A stretch of 59,024 nt of DNA, counting the filler, from Bipalium vagum (lineage: Eukaryota), in the NCBI GenBank assembly GCA_037834085.1. It is 3 parts of 3 records of this genome, joined end to end, with 100 filler letters (N's around TTAATTAATTAA, not from the genome) between each part and the next. Parts side by side here need not be neighbours in the genome. Positions count along the whole stretch, not along the records: positions 1 to 26,960 come from JBBMKC010113317.1; 2 more parts are not named here. One strand, given 5' to 3'. Positions 281 through 26,808 of this stretch are shown here, piece after piece (position 1 is the first letter of the stretch; each line of letters starts with the position of its first letter). The notes below the pieces were generated by a model. The model made no database searches and was not told the DNA's origin. It worked only from the letters and a program-made list of their open reading frames with translations. Position numbers and translations under genes: made by a program.

Positions 281-520
281 CAAACGGTTTTGAAGACTGC
301 CATACAACATACCCAGGATCATATTTTGGAAACTTAGATAAAACTATAGATGGACGTTTATGTTTACCATGGAACCTTGTTGGAACAATACATCAAAAGC
401 TTCAAATTCTACAATATGAAGGAACGGATATGCATTCATATTGTCGTATGATAGATGACTATGTCAAGCCTTGGTGCTACGTGAAAAATGGATTTGCTTA
501 CTGTAATATCCCTTTATGCA
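281..520 (+). CDS. Mosaic kringle/lectin gene, exon: kringle 1 (6 Cys)
   Basis: tttcag|...|gttatt, phase 1-1. Translates to DCHTTYPGSYFGNLDKTIDGRLCLPW...HSYCRMIDDYVKPWCYVKNGFAYCNIPLC, with kringle motifs C-x-x-W, YCR, PWCY and C-x-IP-x-C. Not in the ORF track (no start codon). Confidence 0.9.
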
Positions 521-568
521 GTTATTTATTTAAATAATTGAATAAAAATATTATCATTTTCAATGCAG

Positions 569-955
569 GCAATATTTATAAAGATAAGACTGGCATAATG
601 TTCTTTACAAAAGAAAAGCTGGCACGTGTTAAGTGCATGTATATACAGAATAATATAAGAAAATTTCGAAGCTGCAAGGAATTGTCCCAAAATAACAGTG
701 AAATGAAATTGAAAATAACTCTTAGCCAACCCCTTAAAGTGAAAGCAATCGTTATAAATAAATGTTTTGGCTTTGCTAATTATTCCAAGTTCATGAAGGT
801 AACGGTGATGAGTGATTATAGCCAGTCATATTGTTATTTACATAATGGTAACGATTTTGACGGAAATCCTGTATATTATTTCTGTAATGCCGTTGGGTTT
901 AATATTTTTATACATTTTAAAGATAGGACAAGAATTTGCGAAATTCAAATAATTA
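569..955 (+). CDS. Mosaic gene exon: F5/8-C / F-type-lectin-like beta-sandwich domain 1
   Basis: Follows a 48-nt intron (521-568); atgcag|...|gtaag, phase 1-1. Lies inside ORF 538..1053 and ends RICEIQII, resembling the C-terminal LCEVEV strand of FTP/discoidin domains. Confidence 0.75.
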
Positions 956-1649
956 GTAAGAATCAAATTCGGTTTTCATCTTTACATCTTCAATTTAAGT
1001 TTTATACGAAATCTCTAAGAAGTATGTTGATATTACAACCCATTTCAAATTAACTCATATCCCTCTTCAAATGACAAGTCCTTTTCAAAATCCTTTTAAA
1101 TCAGACATTTAATTAAAGTCACTTGGAATTGTATTATTATATATTTAAAACACAGAAAATATGATTCACAGATTATTTATAAATTATTTAAATATTAACT
1201 TATTTTCATTTAAAATCATATCAATAACTTATTGTCGGCTTATTCTTTGACGATATTATAAATCTTTACACTATTGGGATATTGCTTATTTTGAGAAGTT
1301 AACAATAATCACTATTTGAAATGTTTTCAATTAGAATGTAGGACCTAGACATGTGAAAGAAGAATTTCGTTATGAACAAACAAACATTAATCAGTAAAGT
1401 AGTCATCATTTGAATCAACTGTTGAAGTGAAAAACAATAATTAAGAAATTTTTATTAATTTGTTAAGTGTACAAATAAATACACTCAATTCTCTTTTTAT
1501 GCGGTAGATACGTACCAGGAAAAGTTGCACATAAAAATAGTATAAAAATATATATTTATATACAAAAAGATAGATATGGACCACCGTCCTGGAAATGTTT
1601 ATCTAATGGTCCCCCATTGAAATTTGAAAACATTATTTTTTTATAAAAT

Positions 1650-1910
1650 GTTATTTTTAGGGTCTCAACTGTTTATAAATACGAACAGCAATTAAACAAG
1701 TCACAATTATTATTGATGCATAAAATAGTCAGTAATTAATGTCTGTGATGGCTTGGATAAATTTTATAGAGTTCTCGGTAACCTGATTATAAACACTACG
1801 AACCAGCATTATCGATAAATTTTCTATGGGGTGAATATGGTTCCCAATCCTTAACTTGAATTTTTTGTCTTTTAGCCATTGTTAAGTTGAGCTGGCAACA
1901 TGGCATCGGC
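1650..1910 (-). mobile_element. Tc1-like transposase 3' fragment
   Basis: Minus translation DWEPYSP...LVRSVY resembles the Tc1 WP.xSPDLNPIEN region. Confidence 0.5.
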
Positions 1911-2587
1911 AATTACCTTACTGAAACACAGGATTTAAACGCAAAATTTATCGATATTATAGTAATAATAGATTGACACAAACAAATTTAATTTAATTTT
2001 AAAAGTAAAGTATAATAAAAACTTAAAATATTGTTTAAAAATACCTATAAACCTTGTACTTTGTTAGAATAAATCAAAAGTTAAATTTTCAATAAAAATA
2101 ATAAAGATTTCATAATTTTACAAAGTTTAGCAATTAATTATGGTTACACTGTATATGGAGCGCTGGAAAAATTTTATGGAATCCGTTACGTTAAATTACT
2201 TTTATTTTTTATAACTAATATAATCATAATTAGTTAGTAATTCCATAAATAATTTTATTTAATCTAAATTAAGGAAAATTTTTGAATAAGTAAAAATTTG
2301 AAATGGGAGTTATAAATAATAATGTGAAACTTTTTCGGGAAATTATCATTCGATTATTAAGTTCTGTAATACGCCGAAGCAACACCAAAGAGGAGCGTTT
2401 ACAAATGGTTTACAGGACTAGTTGAGCCACAAATCTGGAGAAAGAGTTTTTATTTTTATTCATTTATAAATGATTTAAACATTTAAATGATTTACACATT
2501 TAACCAAAAATACAATTATAGTTAAAAATGGAAATATATTTTATACCGATTATTTTCATTTTTAATCAAAAACACTTTTGGTTGTAG

Positions 2588-2851
2588 TTGATACAATAAA
2601 TACCAATTGCCACAATTTTGACTTTGATTATCAAGGAATTTTATCGATGGCTGTTCATTACCAGTGTGTTTTATGGAATAGTGGTGTTCTCAATGTTAAA
2701 CTTCCTGAAGGGACACAGTCGCAATTAGCACACTTTAAGAATAAATTCAACGTTTACTTGGAAAATAATTACTGTAGACCAGTAAATGGCAGCTTACTAT
2801 GTTTAGAAAAACCCTCAAAGTTACGACATTGCCATATCCCTAAATGTTCAT
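2588..2851 (+). CDS. Mosaic gene exon: divergent kringle 2
   Basis: ttgtag|...|gttagg, phase 1-1. CHNFDFDYQG...YQCVLW...NNYCRP...LLCLE...CHIPKC; 6 Cys, but PWCY is replaced by LLCL. Confidence 0.85.
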
Positions 2852-3339
2852 GTTAGGTTTCTTTTATTTATCTTTTCATTTTTTTATATTTCCACAAAAG
2901 CAAAGTGAATTTCTTAAAATTAATAATAATATATATTAATAATGTTAGAATTGTTAATAAAAATTATTAATTAAAAACATTGTGTTATTTGTTTAATCAT
3001 TTATATAAGCGAGCTTGAGCTGACTAAAATTTAAAACATTACACAAGAGTAATATTATATCTTATTTATCAATTTCATGAAATCTTATCACTGTATAAAG
3101 AAATCACACTGAAAATAATGAGTACATTGATTATGGTCTAAAATTAAATTAACTATATTTGTAATAAAGTCAAATTAACAACTTATTTTAAATATATAAA
3201 GGATTTTTTTAATAAATGCTTAGACATCGCAATAAATGAATAGGTCAAAATTACACATCCACTAATGTTTTAATCGATTTGCGGAAACAGTAATGAAGTG
3301 CATGAAATGCTTGATGAGACTCCTTAATCTTCAAAATCA

Positions 3340-3660
3340 AAATTCTAGTTTACCAGATTTAAACCACGTGACTTCAATTTGAATGATAAAGAAAGTTAAG
3401 GTCAGCCAAAAAAGTTTGAGAATAGTGAATAGCAAGATTTGTTGAATGAAAACAACACTCAAACAAAGAAAAATTTCCTATGACATTTAGCGCTAGAAAG
3501 TATTCAAAAGGGTGGAAGATAAGTCTCTCGTAATGGGATGAAAGTGCTATTTGTATTTTATAAAGTAAAGCCACATCTCTACTTGCAAGAAAAAAAAGTT
3601 GTTTGTGACAATTTTTATGAGGTAATGTGCAGCATCATTATTCAATAATTGATTTTTCCA
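3340..3660 (+). mobile_element. mariner relic (HTH region)
   Basis: FKPRDFNLNDKES*GQPKKFENSE*QDLLNENNTQT. Confidence 0.65.
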
Positions 3661-5314
3661 ATTTAGTTTCAATATAAATTCTTTTATATATTTCACCTTG
3701 AATTCTAAATTTATATTATTAAGATATTCAAAAATGTCAACCCAAAACCAGAAATCCCGTAGCCAATATGGATCGATTAATTCTTTAGGCTATGGATTTT
3801 CAATTTTAAAATTAAATCTATTTCATATTTCAGTTCAATAAATCTTCTTTGGCATGTGTAACGGCTTAACCACCTACTGTTACTAAAATGAACTAAATCG
3901 TAGATTGATATCAATAATTTATCGTTCAAAATTAAATACCGCTACTTAAGCTTCTTCTAACCTATCAAATCTCAAACTGTTAGAAAGCGGCAGATTTGTT
4001 AATTTTATATACTTATTTATATATTTTTTTCAAGTATACGCTTTCTAAAAATAATTTTGAACCCACAAAAATTTTATTTATACTACTATTTATTATATTA
4101 TATTATTTATATTATTATCTTCAAACATGTTTCGATCTCTTCTTTCAGATCTTCTTCAGTCAATTTTATTCTTCTTCGATATCTATCTTCATATGATATC
4201 ACTATTATGATTTTAATAAAATTATCTACATTATTATTGAGCAAAAGTAAAAAAAACCTTTTTAATTCTACAAACTTTAAAAATAACATTTTATAATATT
4301 TTTAAATTAGTTTTTTAAAAATATTAATTAAAGAAAACATTAATAATCCATTGATTCCCGCTTTCTCCATTTTGTGAATACATTTTTGGTTTTAGTTTTT
4401 TTATTACTAATGATTCGCATATTTACTTTCTTCATCATTATCAAAGTTGTTTATTATTATTACACTAAACTCATTTTCATTGGCATATTTATTTCCTTGT
4501 CTTTCTTTGCAACTAACAGTTTGATCCAACACTTTACTTGTTCTACTTTTTTGAGAAGGCTCACTAATTTGTGTCTTTAGGTGACATTGTTTCTCCCACA
4601 TGTATAGTTGACCACATACATGATATTGAAATTTATACATAATATTAGCTTGCATTGGTTTTGTAGTCAATGTTTTGATTTTTTAAAATTTCTTCGATTT
4701 CGCAGTTACTGATATTACTTTTAGGCCTTCATCATTTATTGACTGTAATATTTTACTTTTATAAATTTTGAATCCCTCTGAATAGTGAATTTTAATAATT
4801 TTCTTATATTCACTTTTTACTTCTTCTTTTTTCGCATTGCATTCTTGATTGTTCATATATATATGATATTATCTAAATCTACTAGGCATGACTTTTGAAA
4901 TGTGTTTGGTTTCAAAATTAGATTATTTTTGAAAATTATTTATTTAAAATGATAAAATCTCATTAATTTTAATTATCAATTTAACTTATTTTATTTGTTC
5001 TTTTTAGATTTGAAAATTATTCTTATCATAATCTATCAAAGATTGATGAAAATGAATTTTCACAATATTTGCAATAAATCATTTTTCAATAATTTCTACA
5101 TTTTATAATGAAATTAAAATCAGTTTATATTTTTAGAAAAATATAAAATTAAAATTTTCCATTTTTTCAATATGTACGTATATTAATATTATTATTTTTT
5201 TAATTTTTTCAAAGTTTTATTAATTATGTTAAAATAATTATTATTAACAATATGTAAACTTAACAAGCTAGTAATTTTTTAAAAAATTATTTATTAAATT
5301 TAATAAAATTCTAG

Positions 5315-5469
5315 ACAAAGGAATCGTGTCTTGCAAAATTGAATGTCTGGATTCTTCGTTTTGTGTTTCGTTTCATGAAACCCCATTTAGCTCTTTAGAT
5401 GAAGCCAAGCAAATATGTTTTTACTGTGGTGCATTGGGATTAGTGAAGATAGCTAACTTCATGCAAAGT
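5315..5469 (+). CDS. Mosaic gene exon: C-type lectin domain, N-terminal half
   Basis: ttctag|...|gtaaat, phase 1-0. CKIECLDSSFCVSFHETPFSSLDEAKQICFYCGALGLVKIANFMQS matches the CTLD alpha1 pattern (A-x-x-x-C ... L-V-x-I). Confidence 0.8.
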
Positions 5470-5659
5470 GTAAATATTTGTTTAATTTCTCACATTATAT
5501 TACTATATATAATAAAACAAGTTTTAATAATTTAATTTTATAATTTAAATTAAATAATTATAAATATTTCTTTGAATTTTATGATATTCATATACTTTCA
5601 TAAATTTATTTCTATTTAATGATGATATATATATAATATAAGTATATATGGTTTAATTA

Positions 5660-6490
5660 GGTGCTATCAATCAATGAAAATAAATGGTGTCATTGATGGG
5701 AACACATTGGGGAGTTATTCCATAAAGACAATCTCATCTATGCTTGAGATGAAATACTTAATTGTGAACATCATTGTAAAAAGATTTTTAAAGACAGAAA
5801 AGGTACAACTCAATAATGCGATGGTAAAAGGTGGTCCAGGTTAAGCTTCAAATAAAAAAAAGAGTTGTTATAACATGTGGATATGGAATGCACTTTGACA
5901 TTAAAACAACATTCAATCTAAGTTAAAGAAAAGTCTATCATCGTTGTATCATTGAATAGGCTTGACAGAGCTCTTGTACAATTTCAGAACCACGTTGGTT
6001 CCATTTAAATTTAGTAGAAGAAACTGCAAAAAACAATAAATTTAAGAACCTGAAACTGAATAATGAAAATAGGAGTCTTTTGAATGAAATAGGATTTTGT
6101 GTTGCTGCAAACCTAGTAGAGATAGAAATCAAAGCGAAAAATCAGTATATGTGAACGTTCCAGCAGCTCGTAGTAGAAATATTTCTATTGTTACTGCAAT
6201 GATAAAATATGATTCGATTTATGATAATAACCATGAAAGACCATTCAATGGAGAAGATTTTAAAGTTGTTTTAATTGAAATAAAATCAGCATTTACTACA
6301 GTTGGTATCTTCCCTTCCATACACACCATTTTTATCGAGAGAGTATTCCCGGTCGTGGAGGTGTAAAAAATGAAAAGGAGTTGAAAATCTTAATTTCAAA
6401 TTAATTTGATCACATTACTGAAGCGCATTTTTGGTCTTTTAAAGGAAAATGCTTTCCTATCTTATTAAATCTTCAAACAGGGAAATGATT
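5660..6490 (+). mobile_element. IS630/Tc1-type DDE transposon relic
   Basis: LNEIGF, RNISIVTAM, FNGEDF and a frameshifted YLP-PYTPFL motif. Confidence 0.7.
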
Positions 6491-7160
6491 AATAAATAAT
6501 AAATAATAATAAAATGTTGTTTGTTGTTTATAATTATTATAAAAAATTATTTAATTGATTGACAAACTTTATAATAACAAATAATATTTATTATTATTAA
6601 TTTTTTTATTATTTATTATAAAAGCCTTATATCACTGATGTTATTGAAAATTTTTGTTTTAATAGAAATTAATTGATTATTTTAAATAAGAATTGATTAA
6701 AATCTAAGCTAAATAATCACATTCGTTACTGTTTTAATGTTGAAATTGATTAATAAAAGGTGTTACAATAATTAGAAAAATAAATAATGTTTTATCGGAA
6801 ATTGACTGAATATTCTCTAAAATTGGGATGAGTTAAAGTAAATATTTTAATTAAGTTTTATTTCAGCTTCATCTGTGATACTAATTCAATTATATTAAAA
6901 ATATTCTTTTTCCTCTTTCCATTAATTGGCATATTCTAGATTGGTACACTTGGAAATTTTCTCCGAAGCTTCAATACGGGATGTTGATCATTAAATTTTA
7001 TTGATATATTAACGAATCAAAATAAATGAGTAATTAAATTCGTTAATTAGAATTTCTTTTTTATATATTTATCTGTCAACTAGACTTCAAATTACTTTTC
7101 ACAAAATATTTGATTGAAAAATGAAATAAAATCAGGATGAAAAGTTCTTTTATTGATATA

Positions 7161-7860
7161 CAGTAGAACCTGCTTAAGAGCACTTGTAAAATGTCAGTGT
7201 GCGTCAATTAAAATTACTTGATTTCGGACAGAAAACTTATTAGGCATTATTATAGGACCGCTTAAAACAGCATTTTGGTTTTGCCTTTTCTCAAACCAAA
7301 TATACATTGCTTGATATAAATCGACACATTTACCTTTTTTTAATTTTCTGGAAAAAGTATTTCTTTTACTCACAGCAATGGATCGTAACTTTTTCTCTTG
7401 GTTTAGCATTTTGATAATATACATACATCACACTTATATTGTTTAGCAAAATCCTTTCTTTTGGAACCATTTTTCAATTTATTAATAATTTCGATTTTTT
7501 GTTGAACTGAAAAATTTTGTCTCATTTTTTTACCATTGTACTAAAAAAATTTTAATCTATTGAAAAATAAGCAAAACTTTGAAAATTTAAAATTGTGTAT
7601 TTAAAGATGTGCATTTATACGATTGAATTTATATTATATTATATTTATATATTATTATATTATATATTTATTATATTTATATATTATATTTATACGAACA
7701 TATATTTTATATTACAATAAATTTATAAAATTGTGCTTCAAATATCTGACATATATGCATCTGAGTTTCAGCAAGGTTAAAATGCTGCTGAACCATATAA
7801 ATCCTGCTCTAATCTTGGAAAGAATGCAGTTTTCCAGTACATGTAAATTTTAGTTCTGTA
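7161..7860 (-). mobile_element. pogo/Tigger (CENP-B-like) deleted element
   Basis: TA+CAGTAGAACC TIR-like end at 7161; HTH_psq MRQNFSVQQKIEIINKLKNG and CENP-B HTH LYQAMYIWF...LSGPII. Confidence 0.75.
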
Positions 7861-7864
7861 AATT

Positions 7865-8480
7865 CAAAGAAAGAAATGTTGATGTCACTGATTAAACACT
7901 CGTTGGTACTCCACGAAAATTGAAATCTGAACTAATAGAAGGACATCTGAATGAAAATAGTGCACAGACGCAAGTAGAATTAGCTGAACAACTGGAAGTC
8001 AACCTACCAATTATTAGCACACGATTACACGAAATGGGAAAAATTAAAAAATTTGGAAAGTGTGTGCCACACAACTGTCAGAAAGCATTTTTATTCCTGT
8101 TAAATACATGTGGGTCGCTGCTCGTAAGGCACAGAAAAAACGATTTTTTATGAAATATTGTCATTCAAGACGAACAATGTATTTACTATGATAATCATAA
8201 GCGGAGACATTCATTGGTGGCCTCTGGTGGTAAACCTGTTAACCCGGCCGCAAAACTAATATGTCCCCAGCAAAAAGTTGCTAGTTTACATAAGGTGGCG
8301 TATGAAAAGTCTTATTCACTATAAGTTCATTTAAGTAGGCGAGGCTGTTAATACAAAACGTTACAGCATACATTTAATTAAAATGCTTTTGGCTTAGAAA
8401 ATAGGAAAACCTATTTTCGGACAATGGTTGCGTAATATTTTGTTGTTGTATTACAATACCAGGCCGCGTGAGAATAAGAA
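7865..8480 (+). mobile_element. mariner relic
   Basis: QTQVELAEQL...MGKIKKFGKCVPH; NIVIQDEQCIYYDN (first catalytic D region). Confidence 0.85.
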
Positions 8481-8608
8481 TGGTAACTAACATGGCGACC
8501 ACACTAGGACTTTAGTAAAATATAGATTTTAAAATGGCATGAATTTCCTTACTTTCTTAATTTTATTTAAAATGATCTTTTTAAAATTTGTACCTATTTT
8601 CTTTGTAG

Positions 8609-8891
8609 GACTTTATACACAGTCGAATCAGAACCATCAATCCACTGGTACAGTGGCTGATAGGATATAACAAACCCATAGGATCGTCCTGGAAAAATGA
8701 TTGGGGAGAAAATATTATTTTTCAAAATTTCAAAAATTATGAAATTCCTAAAACGAACAATGACTCCTTCTTGTGCACCTTACTCAATGCCTACAAGAAC
8801 GATACGTGGAAATGGGAATTCTGCATTAACATTAATAACCCTTTCATTTGCCAGCATACGGATTTTGTAAAATCTCAAAATAAAAGATCAG
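8609..8891 (+). CDS. Mosaic gene exon: C-type lectin domain, C-terminal half
   Basis: ttgtag|...|gttcga, phase 0-1. DFIHSRI...QWLIGY...SSWKNDW...FLCTLL...WKWEFCININNPFICQ has a WIG-like motif and the terminal W..C..FIC. Not in the ORF track. Confidence 0.85.
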
Positions 8892-9039
8892 GTTCGATTT
8901 CAGTTTTAAGAATTTTTAAAAAAAATAAAGCAAACATTTATTAAGTTAAGTTAATTATAATTGATAAGTTAAATATTAGAAATATCTGACCATACAAAAT
9001 GAAGTAGAAAGAGACCAAATAAATCAAAAGATTCAGGAG

Positions 9040-9260
9040 AAAATCATAGCAGTCTTCTAGGTTTCCTTAAATCTTCTTATCAATTTATAAACTGTTGTTT
9101 TCTTTGTTTCATCATCTTGATAAACGTTTTTCAAAGATTCGATGATATCCGATGTTTCCCATCCGAATTTGGTGAAGAATTTCAATACCAAACCCTATTC
9201 AAGTTTCAAAGTTGCCATTTTCTAAAATTACTACCTTAGTAAAAATTTTGTATTATCTTA
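9040..9260 (-). mobile_element. mariner (irritans-like) N-terminal fragment
   Basis: LKFFTKFGWETSDIIESLKNVYQDDETKKTTVYKLIRRFKE. Confidence 0.7.
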
Positions 9261-9609
9261 GTTAGAAGTCTAATGGATGCATTCAATCCTTTTTCCCATT
9301 AATTATCATTATCCTATTCATTCTCTTACATTTTGATAAAACATTCGTATACTTTATTGCATACAATTATTGTACATTTACAGCATAAAAATATTTGATA
9401 AAAATAAAACAAGAAATAATGATGATGAGAATGATTAATAATAATATAATAAAAAAATTAAATTAAAAAAAAAATAAATAAAAATATATATAAATAAATA
9501 AATAATAATAATAATAGTCAGCTAAAAATATTCAAAAGTCTCAACTTTTTAATTCAATATTTTAATGCATAAATATTTTAAATAGAAAAAATTAATTAAC
9601 AAAATTTAG

Positions 9610-9864
9610 ATTCACCGTTTACGTCATGCGCATCCCCAGATTATGATAGATTATATTTCGGAAATATTTCAGTAACTCAAAACAACAAACCCTGTTTTGA
9701 ATGGAAAATATTCGATGATTCTTATACCGTTAATACATTGTCTAATAATATTCTTGATCGTGGAGACCATAATTACTGTCGTTTTCAGCTGAACAGACCA
9801 CTGCCATGGTGTTTTACAAACTCAGATAATACGGAATCAGATTATTGCTTTGTTCCGAGATGTA
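9610..9864 (+). CDS. Mosaic gene exon: kringle 3 (6 Cys)
   Basis: atttag|...|gtatga, phase 1-1. SCASPDYDRLYFGNISVTQNNKPCFEW...HNYCRFQLNRPLPWCFT...DYCFVPRC. Confidence 0.9.
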
Positions 9865-10009
9865 GTATGATTATTATATTAAATAAAAATTTATTTTCCT
9901 AAAATTCTAATACTGTAGTCCTTCTATTAGTTACAACCTCTTTGATTTGCCACAATTTCACTTTTAAACAGACAAAAAAATCTTAGAAGACAAGAAAATA
10001 TTTTATTAA

Positions 10010-13000
10010 AAATACGACCAATAACAATCAACACATTTCTGCCAATGCGAAAAAAGTTTATCTATTCAAAACAATCAAATTTGAAGGCTGAAATGTGCCC
10101 ATTGTACTTAGGCCATAAAATTTGACAAGAGTATCAACCATGAGAAACACATTAAGCAGGTCCACAAAATTGAGTCGAGCGATTCACAGATGTACAAATG
10201 CGTCTGTAATCTGATATTCAATAGGGAAGCATTCTTCCCAGACGTCATCACTCACAATAAAATGATGACCCAAGCCCCGTTTCCTACCCTTGACGACCTA
10301 ATGGTCAGTCTGGAGAATAAGACCTCCAGCTGACTCGAATGGCACGCAATCGAGGCCTACCTACGCACTCACATCCAAGACCCCAATATCGTCTTTATTT
10401 GACCCGGGCCTGCGATTGCCCTCATGAAGAGGAATGCCTTAGACTTCTATAAGCTCTTCCCTTTGCACCGAATGGCCAAATGGTCCATCTTGATCTGGCT
10501 CATCTTATGAGAACTAAGACATTGGATACTCTTTATTGTCGACCACTCCTTATCCTCATCTTTTCTTCTCAACCCGCCATCATCCACCCTGTTTGGAAGC
10601 AAAGTGAATTCCATCAGACTGTTAACTTTGTTATTACCAAGCTTTGCTGCACCCTGGAGACCAATATTATCACAGGTGGATCGATACCGGGACTACCACT
10701 TCAAGGACCCACTACAGACTGTGGCTTCTTCATATGTCAATATGCCCTTGATTATATCGACACAAGGGTGAGGCATTTTTCTGCCCGAACATCACTGAAA
10801 TTAGATCCTCTCTCTCCACCATCATTGATGGCATTATCCGCAACCGCGCCACCATGCCGGGGAGTGAACTAGCGACACAAACCCACCCTATTCTTAAGGA
10901 AGGACTCTCGCTCAGTGATACCACCGACGCCAAACTCGACCTTTCTTCAAACACATCCTTTCTTACGCCAAACGGCTACTATACAACTCTTTCCAGCACG
11001 CTTCGCTGACCGATCACCAAAACCTCCAGTATTCGCACATAAGGACCGCATGGCTCAATTGGCACATCACCTCCGCCGAATATATGAAATTAACCCCAAA
11101 GCGACCTTCCTTGAGCTGCTGCCAAATAATACTCCGAGCTCCTTTCCATCCTGCTTGGACATCACCCAACACTTTGCCTCCGAACCACCACCGCCGATTG
11201 ATCTCCACTTGCAGCCGGCACTCAAATCTCACCCCCTTGATAGACTCCGGGCTCCGATTGACCCAACTGAGATTCTCCAAGCATTAAAAGGGACCTCATC
11301 TTCGGCGCCAAGTGAAGATGGCTTGAATTATGCCGACTGGAAGGCGATTGACCCACTCCACACATTCTTAACGACCCTCTTCAAGTTTAGCTCCTTCACC
11401 AAGCAATGGCGCTCTTTCAAAACCATCCTACCCCTTAAGCCGGGGAAACTTAAACTCTCTCACCTTGTATCTTCCTGGAGATCCATCGCCATCCTTGCTA
11501 TCTCCTACCGTATTTTTATTCTTGTTCTCAACCATCGTCTCCTAGGATGGATATCCTCAGCAAACTTGTTGCACTCCAATCAAAAAACCATCCACTCCCA
11601 GAACGGATGCGGAGAACACAACGGCGTCATTATGGGCCACACGGAATAATGTAAAGCCATTAAAAAGGAGCTGCTTGTGTGCTTCCTGGACGTTGCTGAA
11701 GCATTCCCCAGCCTGCCACATGAGCTCCTTACGTAAATTGGGTCTTTCGGAGAGCAACATTGACTTGTTGAGAGGCATCTATCAGGGCAACTCCATCTAT
11801 TATGTGTGCCATCATCTCACCACACACAGTATACCAATCGAAAAAGGTTTCAAGCAGGGTTGCCCCGTCTTCATGTCATTGTTTTGCCTCTCCATCAACT
11901 TTCTGATAGATCACTTTCGCACGACTCCGACTCGAATCTTGGCTCTTGACTCCACCTTTGACTGTCTTGCATATGCCGACGATTTGGCACTCATTACAGA
12001 CAGTCAGGATAGGCTCCAAAATATGGTCGACACTCTCTACTGTCTCCTTCAGGCGATCCACTTGGCCTTTCGCCCCATGAAAAGCGGATATCTTTGTCAA
12101 TTCTCATTCACATCAGCCACTCTCTTCATCTATGGGGGGCCTATCCCTCAAGTTGAACCGGCAAATATTTACTCGTATCTTGGAGTCACTCACGAAGCTG
12201 ATCTCCGAAGGGCTACAGATGAGATTCTTGAGAAGAATCTGACGGACTTCCGACATATCTCTATCTCCGATCTTCACCCAGCGCAAATGTTCCATCTATA
12301 TAAGATGTTCATCCACTCCCGCCTTCCGTTCCACTTCGCTAACTGGGTGGTCGATCACCTTACCCTGGCCTCGAAGCAGTCACTGCAGTCCTTATATCGG
12401 GACCAGCGTAAAGGATACGATGAACGTCTTAGGGAAATATTTCGAAACATCACCGACACGGACCGCCTCAAGGGTTCCAATAAAGCCTTCCTCTACTCCC
12501 CTGTGGTTCTTGGAGGCTTTGGCATTACTCGCGCTATCGAGGATTACTAAATCTGTAGTATTGTGCAAGGGCCGCGATTCCTCACTAGCTCTGATCAGTC
12601 CTTCCCCACATTCATTACTAACCATCTTCTCCATGTCGTGCGAATGAGGCAATCGGTTACGGCCCACACGGATCTCACTTTTGCCCCGGCTTGGGTCTCA
12701 AATCTCAAGAACTTCTTCGTCTTTGGCCAAGTCACATGGTGGATTAAATTCCGCAAAGCGTGTAAGGCCCTTAAACTTCAACATATTGACTGCTCCTTCA
12801 TGCTTTCCAATAATCCCGTGGCCCTCACAGTTATTTTTACAACCGCCAATGAAACTCTCAACTACATCTTTGACGGAGTGAACATCCATAAAGCTACATC
12901 GACGCTCCATGAGGCAGTAGCTTCCAGAACTATATGGAATGGCGGTCACATAGGTCACATGGCCTACTGGTCCCTTGCTTTGACTTTAGCTCATTCTCTA

Positions 13001-14200
13001 ATTTCATCCTCCATAAACACCATCTTTCGCCGATCATCTGACGCTTCCTTATTAAGGCACACAAAAACAATTTAGCGCTTAATTACTGGCCTTTTAACCT
13101 CATCAAGAATCGTGCCATCATCTGCCGAAAATGCAATGATCATCCTCAGACGCAGGCGCACGTCCTCAATCATTGCAAAAGTCGACCATTTATGCCTACG
13201 ACCAAGCATAACACAGTCCTTTCGGCTGCTGCTGATTTTCTTCGTGACCTTCATTTTGATATGGCCCCTCCTTCACTTCGGACCACCTTGTGCTCGGATC
13301 TGGTCATTCGTCATAAAACAAAAAATGTCATCCGTATTCTTGACGTCAAAGTGCCTTATGTCAAAAACTTCTCGATCCATAGGGAGGCCAATCACCATAA
13401 ATACAGGTCCTTGGTCGACCAGCTGGCCACCAGCAGCCGCTCAACCGTACTCCTTGATGTACTTAATATGGACTCTCTAGGGTGCTGGGACCCAGCGAAT
13501 GACGGCCCGCTGAAAAAGATCGGCCTTAACAAAGACCAACGTGCGGCCCTCACTCACCGTCTTCTTACTAATGCCATCCGCGAATCGTTCCATATTTTTC
13601 TCAACCATGTGGCCTCTCCTAACACTTCTCTTAATGTACCTCCATCATAGCTCCAATATCTATCCGTTATCTATTTATTACTATTTATGTCTCCTATACT
13701 TATTTCATACTATTTCTTCCATATTGCCAAATACTCTCGAGACTTGCATACCTCTCCATCCTGTACTGTTTCCCTGCTCCACTCATATGTTTGTTGTTGT
13801 ATGTGTTGTGTAACCATAATGTCTATGTCCCTTTTTTTTGTGTTTCCATTATTTTAATTGTTATACCTCATGACTGATTAGTATGTAGTTTACCACAGTA
13901 ATCGCCGGTGCTCGTGTTCTCCTTGTATGTATGGCTTTGAAAGTTTCCCTGCTCTCTGTTGACAGATGTAGTCTTCATTGAAAGCAGAGATCATTTGGTC
14001 TCGATAATGAGCCCAATGTGGTTTATCCCAATCCCTGAATTGCACTAATGTTTAGCTTTAAGATTCTTCAGGGGTCACAAGTGGATCACATGGGCCACAG
14101 CCAGAGACTGGAGGCATGAAATGACATAAAGAATTATTGTATATATAAATCTGATTACTGTACACTGTACAGATGTGAAATGTTATAATAAATATACATT
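10010..14200 (+). mobile_element. Decayed NeSL-group (RLE-type) non-LTR retrotransposon with Ulp1-like protease
   Basis: GC-richer block. Contains a C2H2-like finger (CAHC...HIKQVH, ~10094-10165), protease motifs HWILFIVD (10520) and QGPTTDCG (10702), RT motifs SAPSEDG, WRSIAI, KQGCP, YADD (11972) and YLG, a CCHC knuckle CRKC-x8-H-x4-C (13123-13176), then KHN, SDL, DVK, HKY and SLGCW of an RLE; stop at 13650. Multiple stops and frameshifts; ends approximate. Confidence 0.9.
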
Positions 14201-14459: not shown

Positions 14460-14780
14460 TAAATGTAAATTCTTTAGCAAGAGGAATGCCTTATAATTTC
14501 ATAGATCAAAATGAGCAATCATGTCATTATATATCTAAAAAATATTATAAATCTCTGTGGGATGATTTATTGTTCATCCTTGGGTTCAGCTTAATATTTG
14601 AAAATACCATGCCATTGTCAGTGGTAAGGATTAGATATGGTTTTCCTGAAAAAATAAGAAATATTGATATCCAAGATTCAAGGGTCCATATCGCTCTTGA
14701 GCTGCTAACTGATTCGGGCTTTTACATTGGTTTTGATTATATTAATATTCCTAGAAAGTTGTGCGAGATTTACATATATG
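14460..14780 (+). CDS. Mosaic gene exon: F5/8-C / F-type-lectin-like domain 2
   Basis: tttcag|...|gtaata, phase 1-1. Starts NVNSLARGMP (cf. NLA-x-GK of FTP domains) and ends RKLCEIYIYG. Confidence 0.8.
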
Positions 14781-15560: not shown

Positions 15561-15966
15561 CACAGGTCAGTTCACAAAAGCTGGCTTAAAGCATCCAAAA
15601 AGATCTATAATACAGTAGTCCAAACTTACTCTTCTACGAAAGATCAGAAAAATACCAAAGGAATCAAAATGGTAATCTATTATTTCTCATATACCTTATT
15701 CCACCCCACTGTATATGATTAGTATGAGCTGTCATGCCAAATTTAAAAATTATATGTGAAATAATATTAAATTTAAATACATAAATTAAAGTAAAACAAA
15801 ATAAGAATAACAAATTTTTAAGATTTTTTAAAATTTTCATGTTTTGCTCATTTTTTGAAATATTTATGTTTTGAGAGATAAATAACATCATGGGTTTGAA
15901 ACCTGTTCAGGTTAATATGTTATTTTTTATTTTTAAAATTGATATTATTATAATAACTTTCTTCAG

Positions 15967-16254
15967 TAAGGGGCTCCATGGATAGTGACACTAAAATTAG
16001 AACTCTGTTTGATTACATTGGAGATTTGGATATATCAGCTTCTGGAAAACCTTGTCTGCCATGGTATGATGCTATGGATGCAAATATATATATTTTTCCT
16101 GAAGGAAGAAGTGACAGACTATCAACCGAAATTATTAAATACCAAATAGCAAATAAATGTCGCTCACTATATAAAGAAAATTTTATCCCCGTCACATCAG
16201 GATTGTCGTGTTACACTGATCATTATTTTATTGAAAATTGTGATTTAAGATCAG
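15967..16254 (+). CDS. Mosaic gene exon: divergent 4-Cys kringle 4
   Basis: cttcag|...|gttaat, phase 1-1. DYIGDLDISASGKPCLPW...NKCRS...LSCYT...ENCDLRS; first and last kringle Cys absent. Confidence 0.85.
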
Positions 16255-16844
16255 GTTAATGAGGATTTACATTTATGATATTTCACACTTTATAAACTGC
16301 CTTAGTTGTATTTCTGTTCATAAATTTAATTTATTATTAAGTTTTTTTGAATTTTAACTGAAATTTGAATTAATTTCATTATTATTTAATTAAATCTGTA
16401 ATTTGATTGGTCGAGTCCTTCGATAAATATGGAAATGGTTCAAAACCATATTACAATGTTAATTGTTTCATAAACTCTTGAATTTTTTTTAAAGAAACAC
16501 CTGAATGATATAATAAAATCATTTAATTATTTTAAAATTCTATTTAGTGACGCATTTCAATTACCGTAAAAAATAAAGACGAAATTCAATTTTAATTTTT
16601 TAAATTTAATTAATTTTTTTCTTATTTAAATTTTAAAATAATTAAAATTTTATTAATTGGAAAGATATTTTTTGAAAATATATAAATAATCTTATGAAGC
16701 CTCACATAAAATAATCTTATTTTTGATTAAACAACTTTTTTACCTAAACCTTTTTACAATTTTTTGCATGTTTGCTGTTTCTTAATATTTTATTTTATTT
16801 ATATTCAAAATATATTCTGTCATAAATTTTAATATTGTAAGTAT

Positions 16845-19050: not shown

Positions 19051-19377
19051 TATCTGAATAAATTGAGATTGTTTTTTAAAATATAAACTTTTCCTTAAGA
19101 AATTAAAGTTATTTATTTTTATTTTATTTACAAAGTATTAAAAATGCATCAATAAACTTTCAAATAAAAGTGGATTTTATTTATTTATCTATTTATAATT
19201 TACAGAAAAATAAAGTGTACAGATAAATAAATTGATTAACCTAATTGGAAATCTACTAAAACACCTTATAAAAGCACCTAACAATATTATTTTACATAAT
19301 ATCTTTCTTTATTGTTTTAAATATATTTGGTTTTCTCTCTTTTCTAACTTCCTTCTCATTGTAATTAAAATATTTAG

Positions 19378-19650
19378 CGGAATCCCGATCCTGCTTAATG
19401 CCTGAGGATGTGGAAATGGAATATAATATTTATCAAGGATCAGTAAATAAGACAAAATCTGGTAAAAATTGTTTGTTTTGGCTAAACCTAAAATTACCGT
19501 TGGAATTGATAATGAAAATTAACAGGTTAAAGTTATATCCAGGATTGAGTATGGCTAATAATTTTTGTCGAAATTTTGGAGAAACTTTTTATCCTTGGTG
19601 TTATATAAATACAAATTACGAATGGGAGTTTTGTGATGTGAATAGATGTG
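19378..19650 (+). CDS. Mosaic gene exon: kringle 5 (6 Cys)
   Basis: atttag|...|gttagt, phase 1-1. SCL...YQGSVNKTKSGKNCLFW...NNFCRNFGETFYPWCYINTNYEWEFCDVNRC, the most canonical kringle in the gene. Confidence 0.93.
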
Positions 19651-21383
19651 GTTAGTTTTATTGTCAACTTTTAGATAATTATATATATAATTTTTAAATT
19701 CCATAATATTTATATAAAAAACTTCATATATTTCGTTTCTCCTGACATCAACGTCAAATTCCTAAGTGCAGAATTTTGATAGAATTGATTAATGGATCTT
19801 GACTCCGTTTTACCATGCCGAAATTTGTAAATCACACAATGCCTTTTGTGATATTCACTCGGTATTTTGTTGTCATTCCAAGAGATTTAAGTCCGCTAAT
19901 TTTTTGCCTATAGTATCAGGTCCTTGTTGGAAAGATGGCAGATGATTTTTTTATTAATGATGATGAATAAATAATTGATTGATACTATTTTTTATTAAAT
20001 GTTATTTTAAAACTTTGATTTTTGGTCTTTGTTTTCTTTTTGGGACTTCTAATAATTGAAAAATATTTATTGATTAAGTTTCAAAAAATCGAAAAAATTG
20101 TTTTAATATATTTAAACAATTTATTAATTGATTGAATATAAATTCTTAAGAAAATGACATTATCCGTTGTCGACCTGATATTATGATTATCATTTATTAA
20201 ATTTTAAATTTCATTAAAGTTATATTTTTTAAATTTATTTAATTTCATTATAAAATTTCTTTTTTCAAATTGAAATTAATTTAAAATTAAACATTCACTT
20301 TACTTGACGATAATCCTAAACAAGTTTGATAAATTTGATGTGACACAATTCGTTTCCATTGATCCTTTTTTTCCCTAAAATATCCACAGGTAGTTGTCAA
20401 TCCAATCCATGGTGCTTTCCGGTGGTTTACCTTTTTAGCTATTGTCTGTTAACTGTGAAACAATACCTCTAATATTTTTAATTAAGATAAAAAAATTAAT
20501 CAGGATTAAAAAAATATCATAAAATTAAAATTTTTAAAATTTTTAAAAGATAATTTTTAAAATTTTTAGATACTACTAGTAATTATTATTTATTATTGTT
20601 GTGTCAATTTTTCAATTTTAAAATCTTGTTTAACTTGACATGTTTTCTTTTAATAAAATAAGTCTTATAATTGTCTTTATATTTGTAATAGGTTCCTGTT
20701 AAGTCTCTTAAATAAAGATGGATCAGGTTAAGGGCTTAACGGTAGAAGGTTTTATCCGGTAACGAATAATGATTTTTAATCGACAGATGGAAAATAACTG
20801 AGACACAATTTTCATATTATTTTATTGATATTAAATAACAAAATCTAATATGTGCAAATTACAAAGATCAGAGTGATTGTTGTAACAACAATCCTCAGTA
20901 AGAAAAGTTCCGAAAGTTTAAATTAATTAAAGTTCAGAATCTTTTCGTACTAATATAAAAATCTTCTTATTTACTATTTTGTTTTTTTAAAATATTTTTA
21001 TATACATATATTTTTGCTTAATAATGACAATAATAATTATTAATTTTTATCATTTATATTTGGAGAAGAATTCATTTACAATAAGAAATCAAAGAAAATA
21101 AATTATTTTTATTCAGAACCAAATAAAATATTGTCATTTTTGGAATAAATAAAAATTTTTTATTCACAATAAAGTATTATCCTTTTTGAGACTGATGAAT
21201 TCTCCACATTTCTAAAGATTGAGAATGTACCAAAATTTCCTTCCAACCTATGCCAAACTAAAATATTTTATCATACTTTTACGTCAACCATGCCGATCTG
21301 GAAAAAAACAAAATAAATTCTCCTCTTTTCAATAAGAAAAAAAATTAACATTAAAATAAATCTTTACTATTTTAATTTTTAAG

Positions 21384-21749
21384 CCGAAATATCAATACTG
21401 AGCAGTGCAAAAATTGAGCGCAACGGTTATTGGGAAAACATAGAAAATTTTAAAAAGATTTATGGTAATGATTGTCAAAATATAAAGTTCAGAACACTCA
21501 ATTTAACGTTTCCGTCAAAGGTTTCCATTAGTAAAATTTTTCTTAAAACCAAACCGTCCAAATTCATACTAGACCAACCTTCAATTGCCAACTTTTTCAT
21601 AACAATCAAAAACTATGAAAAAATGTTTTACTATGTAAAATGGATAAACATGTTCTCCTCATTCATTTCGTTTCCGACTTCTTTCTCCGAAAATTACGTT
21701 ATTTATAATACGAATTTAAACTTATCATTTTGCGAAATAAATGTTTTAG
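21384..21749 (+). CDS. Mosaic gene exon: F5/8-C / F-type-lectin-like domain 3
   Basis: tttaag|...|gtattt, phase 1-1, 366 nt open. EISILSSAKIE...DCQNIKFRTLNLTFPSKVSISKIFL...LSFCEINVLG. Not in the ORF track. Confidence 0.75.
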
Positions 21750-21860
21750 GTATTTTTTAATTATATTATTATTTGTTCATAAATTTATTTATTATTACTA
21801 TTTTAATTATTACATTACATTTCTGCATCATGATATTATTATACTTAGTTTACTATGATA

Positions 21861-22840
21861 TTAGGTGTCTGCATAATATTAGTCTATTTTTAACAGAAAA
21901 ATATTTTGATAAAAAGTTAATATATTATTTTTACATAACATAGGTACAAAAAATCAATCAGCAAATAAGATCCGTTGTTTTCGATCACGTTTTTATATCT
22001 TTCAGGTAATTGGCAAATTCCCGAACGATAGAATGATCGGTTTTCAAAGCAGTGAAATTGCCAAAAAATTCTTGAATCTCAGATACATTTTTGAAACGAT
22101 TTCCTGCTAAAAACTGTTTCATTGATCGAAACAGATGGTAATCTATAGGTCCAAGGTCCGAGGAATAAGCCGAATAAGCAATAACTTCCCAACCTAATTG
22201 TAAGATTGTATCCTGTGTACGTTTTGCCACATGCTGTCTAGTATTGTTGTAAGATGATTATATGAAATCTTTGACTTGAAAAAGGTCTTTTTTCCTTTAT
22301 TTTTTCAGCCAATTGCAACAACTGTTTGCTGTAATTTTCTGAATTAATGGTTTCACCAATCTAGAGAAAATCATAATAAATTGAACCTCTTATATCTCAC
22401 CAGATTCAAAGGGGCATTTTGCTGTGGATATTAACTTTTGCGGTTGAAGTTACGGGTACACCGGGGTCTATCCACGAATGAATGTGCTTTGGCAATCCAT
22501 TTTTCATCTCCAGTGACGATCTGCCATAAAGTCTTTTCTTGCCTATCAAGAAGCGACACGCATGTTGTTCAACGACATTAAATGTTGATTTCTAATAGTT
22601 CATATGGCACCCACTTTCGAACCTTCTAAATTTTTCCTAATCTATGTAACTACCTCCTAACAATTTCTTGATCGACTCCAAGCTGTTTTGCAAGTTCTTG
22701 TTTTTTGGCAGTATTCTCATAGAGCAGTTTTCCCAATCTCTTAGGGTGCAATATTCGTGAAGCACCAGTTCGAAGTAAATTGTTTACATCAAATTTTCAT
22801 TCCTTAAATCGGCAATACCAATATTTACATGTACTATACC
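21861..22840 (-). mobile_element. mariner relic
   Basis: TA+TTAGGTGT TIR; WEVIAYSAYSSDLGPIDYHLFRSM; IVTGDEKW; WVPYEL. Confidence 0.9.
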
Positions 22841-23958
22841 ATATTGTAAAAATGAATGTAGGTTAAGACACAGTTATGATTATTAAATTTGATTAATCTT
22901 AAATGTAGGCCACAGAATGACCAGTGAAACAATATAGAACGTGTGACATGTGACAAATTACATAAATTTTAAAGGCTAGCAAAATACGTGTCTACGAATC
23001 AATTATACAGGGTGCTAATTGAACCTCAACTCCCAATCCATCTTTGAGAAAATATTTCAATGAAAAATTGAGGAACTGCTACTTTCCAATGTGCAGGTGC
23101 CCTTCCTTGTTGTAAAAATGTATTTCTCAGAATTCTATGGCTTTTAAGGATAGATACAATATAATCTTTAAGCATCTGTAAATAATTTTCTGATTTCTCG
23201 GCTTACGATACAAAAAATAGGAACCATCTTATTTTTTGGAAGAGATCGCTATTCAAAAATTGACTTTTGCTAATGTTTTTCTAATTTCAGCAGAGTTTCC
23301 CGGATTATTGATTTTGTGGTATAATATTCCAAACACAAAAATTCTTTCTACTGCTGTCAACATACTGAAATTTATACAAACCCTTTTATCAATATTAAAA
23401 AAATTAATTAATTTTCTTACTTAGACTAAATAAATCTTCAATATTGAAATTACTATTATACAAGAAGAATTTATTTTAAATATTTTTATTTTGAAAGTAA
23501 TATTAAAATAATAAAAATAAAATATGAATAGACTTAACTAAAAAATATGTCAAAAGTTAGTATAATAGTGAGCAAAATTTTTGACATCCTTAAAAATCTT
23601 TATATTATTTATTGAATTAAGTTTAAAATGATATAAACTTATGTAAACTATAAATATTAATTAACTAAAGAATTTTTCACCCAAGTAATTAATTAGTTGT
23701 TTAAATATTCAATTTAATAATTTGCATAAGTTCAAAATTTTTGACACCCACACATATTTTAATTTAAAGTAAGTTATTTTGACGAGATATAAAATTTACA
23801 ATTTCCATGTATAGTTATTATATATAATATAATATAGTAATATATAATATTATAATATTTTATCATAATAAACTTGTAATGATTTACGAATAAGGCTTGT
23901 ATAAATATGAATTCAAGAAAGAAATTAAAATAATTATTGAATTTCACTGTATTTTCAG

Positions 23959-24294
23959 CGGACTCAAAACCGGAAACAGGAATAAATAATGATTATGAAA
24001 ATTACGTTAGCATTACAAAATTTGAGAAGCCTGGTTTTGTTAAGAATACAGCTGAAAGTTGTGGATTATGGTCAAAACTTCTCACAGGAACCAAATTAAA
24101 GAATGATTTAATTATAAACATAAAGTATATGATATCCGACTTACCAATCAATTCCATATCATCTAATTATCTTAAATACCTTAAAACGTCTTGTTTGAAT
24201 GTTTTTGTCAAAAATGAGCTCAGAGTGCTGAAGTCGGTTTGCATTTCCGATAAGTATAATTCTATTGTAAATTGCACAGAAGACGAATTTATGA
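23959..24294 (+). CDS. Mosaic gene exon: highly divergent 4-Cys kringle-like 6
   Basis: tttcag|...|gtaaat, phase 1-1. GFVKNTAESCGLW...TSCLN...SVCIS...VNCTE; Cys spacing matches kringle C2-C5. Confidence 0.7.
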
Positions 24295-24802
24295 GTAAAT
24301 TTCATTATACACAATAAAATATAAAAAATGAAAATTAAGAGCCGTTATTAATTCGAAAATAAGAATTCTTGCTATTATCACATTGAAATAAATAAACTTT
24401 GATGTGAAAATAGCAAATAATTGTTTTAATGAATAATGTAAGAAATTGAGACTCTGTCATTAATAGTTAGAGAGCTTTAGTTAATGTCATATTTAATGTC
24501 AAAACTGATATTTTAATGATTTAGTTAAGATTAAAACAAAATATTATCATTATTTTCATTTAAATGTTGCAGATAAAATATAATAATAATTTTGACCTAA
24601 AATTTAGACTTCGGAACTAAATACATTATAATTATTACCTTCTCACCCTGAAATAAAAGTTAAAAATTATTATTATAGTATCTCAGTCTTTTATCCAGAA
24701 TTCACTGGGAATTTTTAAGTGTAATTATTGATATTTTATATTTGATCAAATGAATATAATTTATACAAATATTAAATTAAACGTTGATATCCTCTTTTAT
24801 AG

Positions 24803-25072
24803 ATTTGACCAGATTTTGTTATGTATTAGAGGAAGACACTCATATTTTTTCATACACTGGTGATATAAGTACAACTAAAAAGGGTTTTAGTTGTCAGTTT
24901 TGGAATACAGATTTCCCAAATATTAGATCAAAACCTGTTGTTTATGTAGTACAGAAATATAATATAAACCATAATTATTGCAGATTTTTCCCGCACAGGT
25001 TCTACATAAAAGCTTGGTGTTATGTCGATGAGGTTTTTGAAAAACAAGATGAATGTGATATCCCAATTTGTG
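24803..25072 (+). CDS. Mosaic gene exon: kringle 7 (6 Cys)
   Basis: ttatag|...|gtaaga, phase 1-1. FCY...YTGDISTTKKGFSCQFW...HNYCRF...AWCYVD...ECDIPIC. Confidence 0.93.
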
Positions 25073-25689
25073 GTAAGAAAAGATTTTTTTAATCGTGTTT
25101 GGTTTTCAATAAAATCTAGAGAACTCTTCTTAGATATAATTATCAAAAGGTCTAGGTATGAAACCCCATTCTTAATAATAAAAAAAAGTTACAATGACGA
25201 TGATAGTGTTGAATTAATTTTTCATGTTCAAATAGTTTTAATGTAATAAAGAACCCTGTAATATCATCGATGCAATATTATTGATAATTGACGGTCGACC
25301 AATTATTGGTTTATCTTGAAGGTCGAATTCTCCATTCCGGAATTTTGAAAATCATTTGTATACCGTAGATCGAGAAATAATTCCATTACCAAAAGCTTTA
25401 CTTATTCTATCTTAGGATTGACCAACATTTAAACATGATTTGTAATCATAAGATAATAGAAGATATACCTTCTCTCGTAATAGATGTGAATTTAGATTTG
25501 ATTTATCGGACATTTTATAGAGTCAACCCTCATTATCCGAAAACTTCATAGTCCGACAAAAAAAATTTATTTCGTCTATTTCCAGAAAAAATTGAATCAT
25601 TAATCCGAAAATTCATGATCCGCAATCAAAAAGATCTTTTTTGAATTAAAAATAAAAACCACAAATTTCCTAGTTCAAATTTTATACAA

Positions 25690-26200
25690 AAAAGATTATG
25701 AGAGCCCGGTAGAAATATGTAAAAGAATGGGAATACCGTTAAAGACAGTAAAAAGAACTGTCTCTAAAATAAAAATGTGATGCAGTCTTGAAAGAAAGAA
25801 ATGAATTGGAAGGATCAGAATATTTTTAAAAATAGATAGACTCAGAGAGAGAGACTCAGCTATTTTTTCATAAATTGTGAACACAAGAAAATTTTGATAT
25901 GTGTGAAGATATGACATATCATGGTTCCCCAAGAGTATAACACCATTTTAAACTACCTGCATCGATCAGGATTTTCAAAATTTGCTCCTTAGAGGATGTT
26001 AAATACAACCTGCAGGCGTGAAGAGAATAGAATTAAATGGTGTGAGAAAAACAGAATAACAAAATGGCATAACTGAAATTTTAGCGATGAAACCACTTTT
26101 GAACTGTATGACATGAAAGGAAAACGCTGGGCCAAAACTAGACCTGAGTTACGTGCTCCGAAATATGGACCGTCAATAATGACATGGGATACCATTAGCT
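25690..26200 (+). mobile_element. Tc1-like relic
   Basis: HTH-like start and FSDETTFEL near 26080. Confidence 0.65.
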
Positions 26201-26469
26201 TTTCGTGGAAATCATTATACATATTCATTATTTTTATCATGGTCCAGTATAATTTTCCGTTTAACACATTGAACAATCACCAAATATTTAATCACTTTCT
26301 GATTTTGTCCTCTGAAAGAAAATTGATAGAAAATTCTTCTGTTTCATTTTCGTAATATTTATGTTCATTACACATTCTTAAAATATAAATATATTTTTAT
26401 TGTACTCAGGTTTATATATTTCAATAAAATTATTATTATTATTATTTGAACAAACAATAAATCAAACAG

Positions 26470-26808
26470 TTGATATCTCAAGAAGTGGCTATTTTATCAT
26501 TGATAATAAAAGTATTACCGGTATTCCGAACTCAACTCTTTCGAACTCAGTGGTACAGTGGGATTTAATAAAAAGTGGCCACTTGATTACTCTCTTAGGG
26601 GGGACAGTAAAATACTTTACCGATAGTCGTTTCCCAATCAAAATGTCTGTCCTTTTTAAAAATGATGCCTATCAGAACTACGGTTCATGTTACGTAGGAA
26701 TAATAACATATCTATTTACCTGTAGGCAAAACGTAACGAGCATGAAATTTATATTTCATTCGTCCAGCTATAATGAAACCATTCATTTTATTAATATTAA
26801 AATTTACG
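26470..26808 (+). CDS. Mosaic gene exon: F5/8-C-like domain 4 (last visible exon before the gap)
   Basis: aaacag|...|gtaaga, phase 1-1, inside ORF 26400..26828. Ends HFINIKIYG like the other F exons and has an internal C...C pair as in domain 1. Confidence 0.65.

Follow-up and report, generated by a model that had tools for sequence, protein, structure and literature searches.

A candidate adhesion or recognition gene of Bipalium vagum in which kringles alternate with putative F5/8-C-like domains

A stretch of Bipalium vagum DNA (assembly GCA_037834085.1; three joined parts, 59,024 nt in all, 27.8% GC, 176 N), hereafter termed the window, contains 13 putative exons on its + strand, within positions 281-26808, that appear to encode kringles alternating with domains of other types. 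The locus raises the question of whether these exons belong to one gene and, if so, what kind of protein it specifies. The window carries spliceosomal-type introns and remnants of mariner-type and non-LTR (non-long terminal repeat) elements, which mark it as DNA of an AT-rich animal. The exons, with K denoting a kringle, K' a degenerate kringle, F an F5/8-C-like or F-type-like domain and CTLD a C-type lectin-like domain, and the adjacent gap are as follows:

281..520, + strand: K1, kringle with six cysteines and a PWCY motif (Pfam Kringle, 39.1 bits; splice sites)
569..955, + strand: F1, degenerate galactose-binding-like domain, probably F5/8C or F-type (Atlas, 0.95; fold match)
2588..2851, + strand: K2', degenerate kringle with six cysteines, lacking the PWC motif (own kringle profile, 23.3 bits; Pfam, none)
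5315..5469, + strand: first half of the CTLD, phase 1-0 (joined domain, 24.6 bits)
8609..8891, + strand: second half of the CTLD, phase 0-1, lacking EPN/QPD and WND (Atlas Lectin_C, 0.94; alignment)
9610..9864, + strand: K3, kringle (Pfam, 40.5 bits)
14460..14780, + strand: F2, probable degenerate F-type domain (gastropod profile, 1.8 bits; motifs)
15967..16254, + strand: K4', degenerate kringle that has lost Cys1 and Cys6 (21.3 bits; four cysteines)
19378..19650, + strand: K5, kringle (Pfam, 51.6 bits)
21384..21749, + strand: F3, assigned as F-like only from its position, phase, size and C-terminal CEI strand (motif)
23959..24294, + strand: K6', highly degenerate, kringle-like, with four inner cysteines (0.1 bits; cysteine pattern)
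24803..25072, + strand: K7, kringle (Pfam, 45.1 bits)
26470..26808 (acceptor maybe at 26410), + strand: F4, probable degenerate F-like domain with a phase-1 donor (combined profile, 2.6 bits; splice sites)
26961..27060, no strand: gap (N runs), flanked by (TAC)n and (TTA)n repeats

All 13 exons are bounded by AG and GT, and their joined length of 3777 nt gives 1259 codons uninterrupted by a stop, as a first-pass annotation of this DNA had claimed. The other two frames of the spliced exons contain 90 and 142 stops (intron composition predicts about 89), although this comparison is not independent since the exons were chosen for being open. The modules run K-F-K'-CTL-K-F-K'-K-F-K'-K-F, the periodic order described in the first-pass annotation. 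Eleven exons are of phase 1-1 and carry one domain each, while a phase-0 intron splits the CTLD. A relaxed scan of the gene span, minus a retroelement, detected 11 open phase 1-1 segments of at least 240 nt. These were the 11 claimed exons, three of them with alternative possible ends, whereas 100 block shuffles averaged 0.28 such segments and never gave more than two. As far as 59 kb, the + strand had no additional open phase 1-1 segment of that size, and the 1298 stop-free segments of the window included no extra kringle or CTLD-like one. Some splice sites are doubtful: the F4 acceptor may lie at 26470 or 26410, the F1 donor at 955 or 1021, and the F3 acceptor is AAG. The intron between K1 and F1 measures 48 nt; the largest reach 4.6 kb, and introns contain retroelement and transposon remnants.

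Neither end of the reading is closed: the first exon begins and the last ends in phase 1, without a start or a stop. The phase-1 acceptor of K1 implies that earlier exons precede the start of the window, and the phase-1 donor of F4 that the gene continues beyond this exon, which ends 152 nt short of the gap. The 13 exons are thus likely to be an internal piece of one gene, joined in a single transcript, and the 3' part of this gene is probably in the gap or on another piece. The gaps at 26961-27060 and 42925-43024 each consist of 44 N, a 12-nt linker with stops in all frames and another 44 N, and are placeholders. Contigs of one sequencing run (X1), compared over positions 1-5200, were identical to 158-1505 and 2083-4152; they extend over introns, and the run may be the source of the stretch itself.

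The kringles were recognized with unequal strength. K1, K3, K5 and K7 all scored above the Pfam Kringle (PF00051) cutoff of 34.3 bits and have six cysteines each. A PWC-type motif was found in all four of them and in none of the three K' copies, which had no Pfam match. On our own kringle profile, made from 250 of 346 fetched kringles, K2' and K4' scored 23.3 and 21.3 bits and K6' only 0.1. K4' and K6' retain just the four inner cysteines, Cys1 and Cys6 being gone from both. This pattern, which was defined post hoc, arose by chance in 28 of 200,000 shuffles of K4' and in 13 of 200,000 of K6'. Cys1 and Cys6 of a kringle form one disulfide pair; their joint loss would therefore remove a whole disulfide, which suggests that the kringle fold of K4' and K6' is still constrained. 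The seven kringles of the first-pass annotation can accordingly be described as four that pass the Pfam cutoff, two weak ones (K2' and K4') and one, K6', proposed from its cysteine pattern.

The single CTLD held up well. With a profile built from 11 fetched CTLDs, the joined domain obtained 24.6 bits, as against a maximum of 9.2 in 1000 shuffles, and Atlas placed it in Lectin_C at 0.94. The profile match includes the core cysteines and a WIGL-like strand. PDB sequence searches with the CTLD halves gave no relevant match. Weak Pfam rows obtained for K6', F1, F2 and the CTLD halves (e.g. DUF7775, E 0.0004) were treated as noise.

The four F exons had no meaningful Pfam match and showed no significant pairwise similarity among themselves. 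For F1, two methods point, with modest confidence, to a galactose-binding-like fold of the F5/8C or fucolectin kind. Atlas assigned F1 to F5/8C clusters at 0.95; the features in common numbered 159 of 256, below the 170 that same-family matches typically have. A single-sequence model with a pLDDT (predicted local distance difference test) of 55.1, compared with known folds (VIA), best matched 3ggl (Z 7.2, root-mean-square deviation 3.1, 99 aligned residues), the fucolectin 3cqo reaching Z 6.4; the model resembles CBM32, fucolectin, discoidin and factor VIII C2 domains. In this search 65 of 48,161 chains had a Z of at least 5, none of them 8, and nearly all of the best 50 of those were galactose-binding-like, judged by their titles. 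Foldseek returned no match for F1 at E 0.001, its top rows containing both C2 domains of coagulation factors and a beta-sandwich protein of no relation, and a PDB sequence search with the F alignment gave nothing relevant. An alignment of F1 to whole proteins scattered over several domains and was discarded as unfit for folding.

The F exons were also scored on three small local F profiles, with 500 shuffles each. The score of F1 was reached by 91, 8 and 3 shuffles; that of F2 by 46, 2 (gastropod profile, 1.8 bits) and 42 (combined profile); that of F3 by 32, 163 and 71, which is not significant; and that of F4 by 366, 9 and 5 (combined profile, 2.6 bits). For three control exons, 319 to 500 shuffles did so. 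Since 21 tests were run in all, the matches of F2 and F4 are merely suggestive of degenerate F-like domains. A C-terminal CEI strand is common to F1, F2, F3 and most gastropod F domains (described below), and a D..SC segment of F2 resembles the gastropod domains. F3 folded alone gave a pLDDT of 40.0 and no useful fold match (best Z 3.0). Of the four F5/8-C-like domains originally proposed, F1 is thus supported by Atlas and by its fold, F2 and F4 are suggestive, and F3 was not confirmed.

The ligand motifs expected of such domains are missing. The lysine-binding motif of kringles is a D-x-D/E pair; after the third cysteine it was present in all five kringles of a fish plasminogen (P0138) and in none of the seven window kringles, K1 retaining its first Asp only. 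The Ca2+/sugar motifs of CTLDs are EPN or QPD plus WND, at whose profile positions the window CTLD carries KTN and WKW. The fucose motif H-x24-R-x-D-x4-R/K and the cation motif hhDGx, given for F-type domains in PMC5712786, were absent from all four F exons. With the canonical lysine, sugar and calcium motifs gone, a role in adhesion or recognition through protein contacts is the likeliest.

How the array arose was approached from its order and from comparison of its copies. An F follows every K, and the perfect alternation of four K and three K' is one of 35 possible orders. It is plausible from this order that the array grew, long ago, by duplication of an F-K'-K unit. The ancient triplet duplication put forward in the first-pass annotation fits the order, but the copies do not bear it out: K' resembles K more than other K', the kringle tree does not group them, and the F copies are unalike. 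K-K identities are 27-34% and that of K2' and K4' is 23%; in leave-one-out comparisons K' scored 1-2 bits against other K' and 3.7-22.5 bits against the K profile. A tree of 39 kringle rows, with K6' and two fragments left out, did not unite the K copies or the K' copies (0% support over 200 bootstrap trees); its branches are very long and saturated.

Relatives were sought in searches that were limited to 2000 or 2356 residues and require shared words. F1 had no match among 1.84 billion representatives, and the seven candidates obtained for K5 among longer proteins gave none either. A metagenome scan with K7 returned one locus in 598 stretches; it lies on a bacterial contig that carries no kringle gene and was dismissed as chance. 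The kringle searches fetched 208 proteins, eight of which combine kringles with an F-like domain on our own profile, itself built from seven of those eight. The gastropod set comprises Pomacea canaliculata LOC112555197 (P0022) and Batillaria attramentaria BaRGS_00029633, 00033075 and 00033053 (P0120, P0121 and P0128). P0022, P0120 and P0121 repeat a kringle-kringle-spacer-(Sushi)-F order, of which Pfam shows only Kringle, or Kringle plus Sushi. P0022 ends in a serine/threonine stalk followed by a hydrophobic segment. P0128 also has C-type lectin domains, one of which seems to be inserted inside a degenerate F-type-like domain. Against the canonical profile, three of five gastropod F domains scored 13-15 bits (reached by 0 of 300 shuffles), one 6.2 and one 1.0. 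Pfam misses these F-type-like domains, the four proteins being annotated as Kringle, Sushi or CTLD only.

The gastropod proteins share with the window gene the repeated F-K-K order and F domains without fucose or cation motifs. They differ in having a cysteine-rich spacer and a Sushi or Sushi-like domain between the kringle pair and F, and in both kringles being canonical, whereas the window gene joins K, F and K' directly and its K' is degenerate. Pfam found no Sushi in the window exons, and there was no spare + strand phase-1 exon. On profiles of the gastropod kringles preceding and following F, K3, K5 and K7 scored higher with the pre-F profile and K1 with the post-F profile; K2' was also higher pre-F and K4' about equal, the tree being saturated, and these comparisons gave no indication of orthology. 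Kringles alternating with degenerate F-type domains are therefore already present in databases, in uncharacterised proteins; the exact K-F-K' period with a degenerate K' had no match elsewhere among the proteins searched.

Better known systems resemble the window gene in part. Plasminogen, apolipoprotein(a) and HGF share with it the six-cysteine kringle fold and the phase-1 module logic of their kringles. They have tandem kringles, PAN and trypsin-like domains and the D-x-D site, none of which was found in the part seen. The amphioxus and echinoderm proteins P0133, P0203, P0043 and P0044 combine kringles with a Pfam-recognized F5/8C domain in one chain, P0203 adding a CTLD, but their orders are irregular, with Ig, PAN, SRCR, Kazal or trypsin domains, and show no repeated K-F-K' unit. 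Tmed-krg1 of the polyclad Theama mediterranea (P0131), possibly of the same phylum as the window gene, and Macrostomum Mlig018513 (P0132) are, like the window gene, large multi-kringle proteins without a protease. Their kringles are purely tandem (eight and six, by Pfam), without F or CTLD, whereas F and CTLD exons interrupt those of the window gene. According to PMC9229212, Tmed-krg1 is anchor-cell specific and predicted to be membrane-bound, its knockdown in a small test abolishes adhesion, and lysine binding is proposed but was untested in that study. This mechanism requires residues absent from the window kringles. A complete D-x-D was clear in only one of the six P0131 kringles (of eight) read by our motif script, which makes an uneasy fit with the lysine-binding model of PMC9229212.

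F-type domains themselves have been reported, in PMC5712786, to occur with CTLD, pentraxin, CCP, membrane and FA58C partners. Compared by that description, Drosophila Furrowed / CG9095 unites F-type and CTLD in one protein, as the window gene does, and in CG9095 both lack the canonical sugar-binding residues. Furrowed / CG9095 has CCP repeats and a membrane helix, with no kringles listed there; Pfam detected no Sushi/CCP in the window exons seen. The kringle passages of three other papers concern uPA-like proteins or FN2 domains (PMC11755087, PMC4795655, PMC3435950). A search by title and start of abstract, with most subscription literature outside it, found no published description of this architecture. 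The first-pass statement that the architecture has no characterised counterpart therefore stands as to papers, but uniqueness was overstated, because gastropod proteins in the databases alternate kringle pairs with degenerate F-type domains.

Taken as a whole, we judge it barely better than an even bet that the 13 exons encode the middle of a large, membrane-tethered or secreted, non-enzymatic and multivalent adhesion or recognition rod that works via protein-protein contacts. The part seen has 58 cysteines and 15 N-glycosylation sequons; its best 19-residue hydropathy is 1.66, inside F2, with no membrane helix, and these features would place it outside the cell. A Pfam scan of the exons found no enzyme domain. 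The missing 3' end would encode a stalk and a membrane anchor, by analogy with Tmed-krg1 and the gastropod look-alike (P0022). Behind each F domain, a K' kringle may act structurally, as packing or as a spacer, and contact with a protein partner would be made by the K kringles and the F or CTLD surfaces. Of the surface or secreted recognition protein envisaged by the first-pass annotation, a constrained, non-enzymatic extracellular mosaic is retained, and the lectin reading is narrowed by the absent motifs.

Several observations weigh against such a rod. Both gene ends are missing, so that an anchor, a signal peptide and any catalytic domain lie outside the part seen. The fold match of F1, at Z 7.2, is under the tool's caution level of 8; F3 appears weakly assigned, by position, phase, size and CEI strand only, as does K6', by its four-cysteine pattern alone. 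The lost motifs may still be compatible with non-canonical sugar binding. No ortholog was found in the K5, F1 and kringle searches; the best fetched proteins match through generic kringles only, at 20-30% identity, and in the (saturated) tree the window kringles stand apart from gastropod or flatworm kringles.

The missing ends leave room for an alternative that is unlikely but a serious contender, namely a signalling receptor (e.g. seven-transmembrane) or a mosaic protease (e.g. trypsin or astacin) of which the exons encode the N-terminal ectodomain and the gap contains the business end. The frame is indeed open at its 3' end beside the gap; kringle arrays are fused to seven-transmembrane domains in the fetched P0005, P0124, P0130 and P0135, and the echinoderm P0043 and P0044 combine kringles, an F5/8-type domain and trypsin. 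However, no seven-transmembrane or protease domain was found in any long open frame scanned, and the proteins with the nearest module orders (P0022, P0120 and P0121) show only Kringle or Kringle plus Sushi in Pfam.

The adhesion/recognition rod may also be given a more specific form, which we regard as rather improbable. F-K'-K would be an ancient and so far undescribed lophotrochozoan ectodomain module, also present in the gastropod proteins. The gene would then represent, in flatworms, a still unnamed family of adhesion receptors tethered to the membrane, with pseudo-lectin and pseudo-kringle domains joining into a single composite binding unit; it would possibly be the body-side partner of a secreted glue, alongside Tmed-krg1.

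More doubtful still is genuine glycan binding by the F and CTLD domains at non-canonical sites, which would make the protein a multivalent lectin or an immune pattern-recognition protein. Extreme divergence among copies would suit diversifying recognition, the nearest folds of F1 are carbohydrate-binding modules (CBM32, fucolectin) and, according to PMC5712786, an altered motif may reflect changed specificity and not only loss. Nevertheless, none of the fucose, cation, EPN/QPD and WND motifs is present, and a shared fold is no proof of function, the F1 list including the non-lectins muskelin, SUN2 and factor VIII. Least credible is that the exons derive from two or more adjacent paralogs, or that the gene has begun to decay: introns of up to 4.6 kb with retroelement and transposon remains, several weak splice sites and the barely recognizable K6' and F3 would agree with this, but all exons are of internal type with compatible phases (short first or last exons may be hidden in introns), and the 1259 codons contain neither a stop nor a frameshift. 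The paired cysteine loss suggests continued constraint, which the first-pass annotation had proposed from the open exons.

The remainder of the window contains other elements. In the K3-F2 intron, at about 10250-14130 (+ strand), there is a frameshifted non-LTR retroelement with a GC content of ∼46%; its reverse transcriptase (PF00078, 34.5 bits) lies at 11546-12547, and a downstream frame at 13042-13647 shows, by eye, a Cys/His knuckle and an endonuclease-like end. Decayed mariner/Tc1-type copies were seen at 28918-29690, 21988-22800, 7780-8500, 41400-42100 and 57200-57680; the portion at 29226-29633 passes Transposase_1 (69.1 bits), the other copies being weak or recognized by eye. Open frames on the - strand at 27574-27813, 28129-28473, 28669-28980 and 35169-35699 had no meaningful Pfam match. 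Possibly they are the exons of a gene that points towards the gap, terminates near 27571 and would converge on the kringle gene. Past the gap on the + strand, the open frames at 31347-31604 and 31902-32105 (86 and 68 codons) had no Pfam match and are attributed neither to the kringle gene nor to the - strand one. Exons of an RNA-recognition-motif gene were noted at 44592-45366 and ∼50480-50600 (- strand; weak RRM_1 match, E 0.062), which we take, by eye, to be RBMS/MSSP-like. Rfam gave no matches in the window.

Invertebrate genomes hold many shuffled kringle/lectin mosaics, nearly all of them untested, and without a function the present gene remains a catalogue entry. What is unusual here is the strict K-F-K' period together with the shedding of every canonical ligand motif while the gene stays intact, a combination that points to a composite protein-binding unit. 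Since the F domains escape Pfam, a wider family may be concealed behind annotations that list kringles only. Should the animal be a flatworm, the gene would be a candidate for RNA interference of surface adhesion, a process for which one kringle array is already needed.

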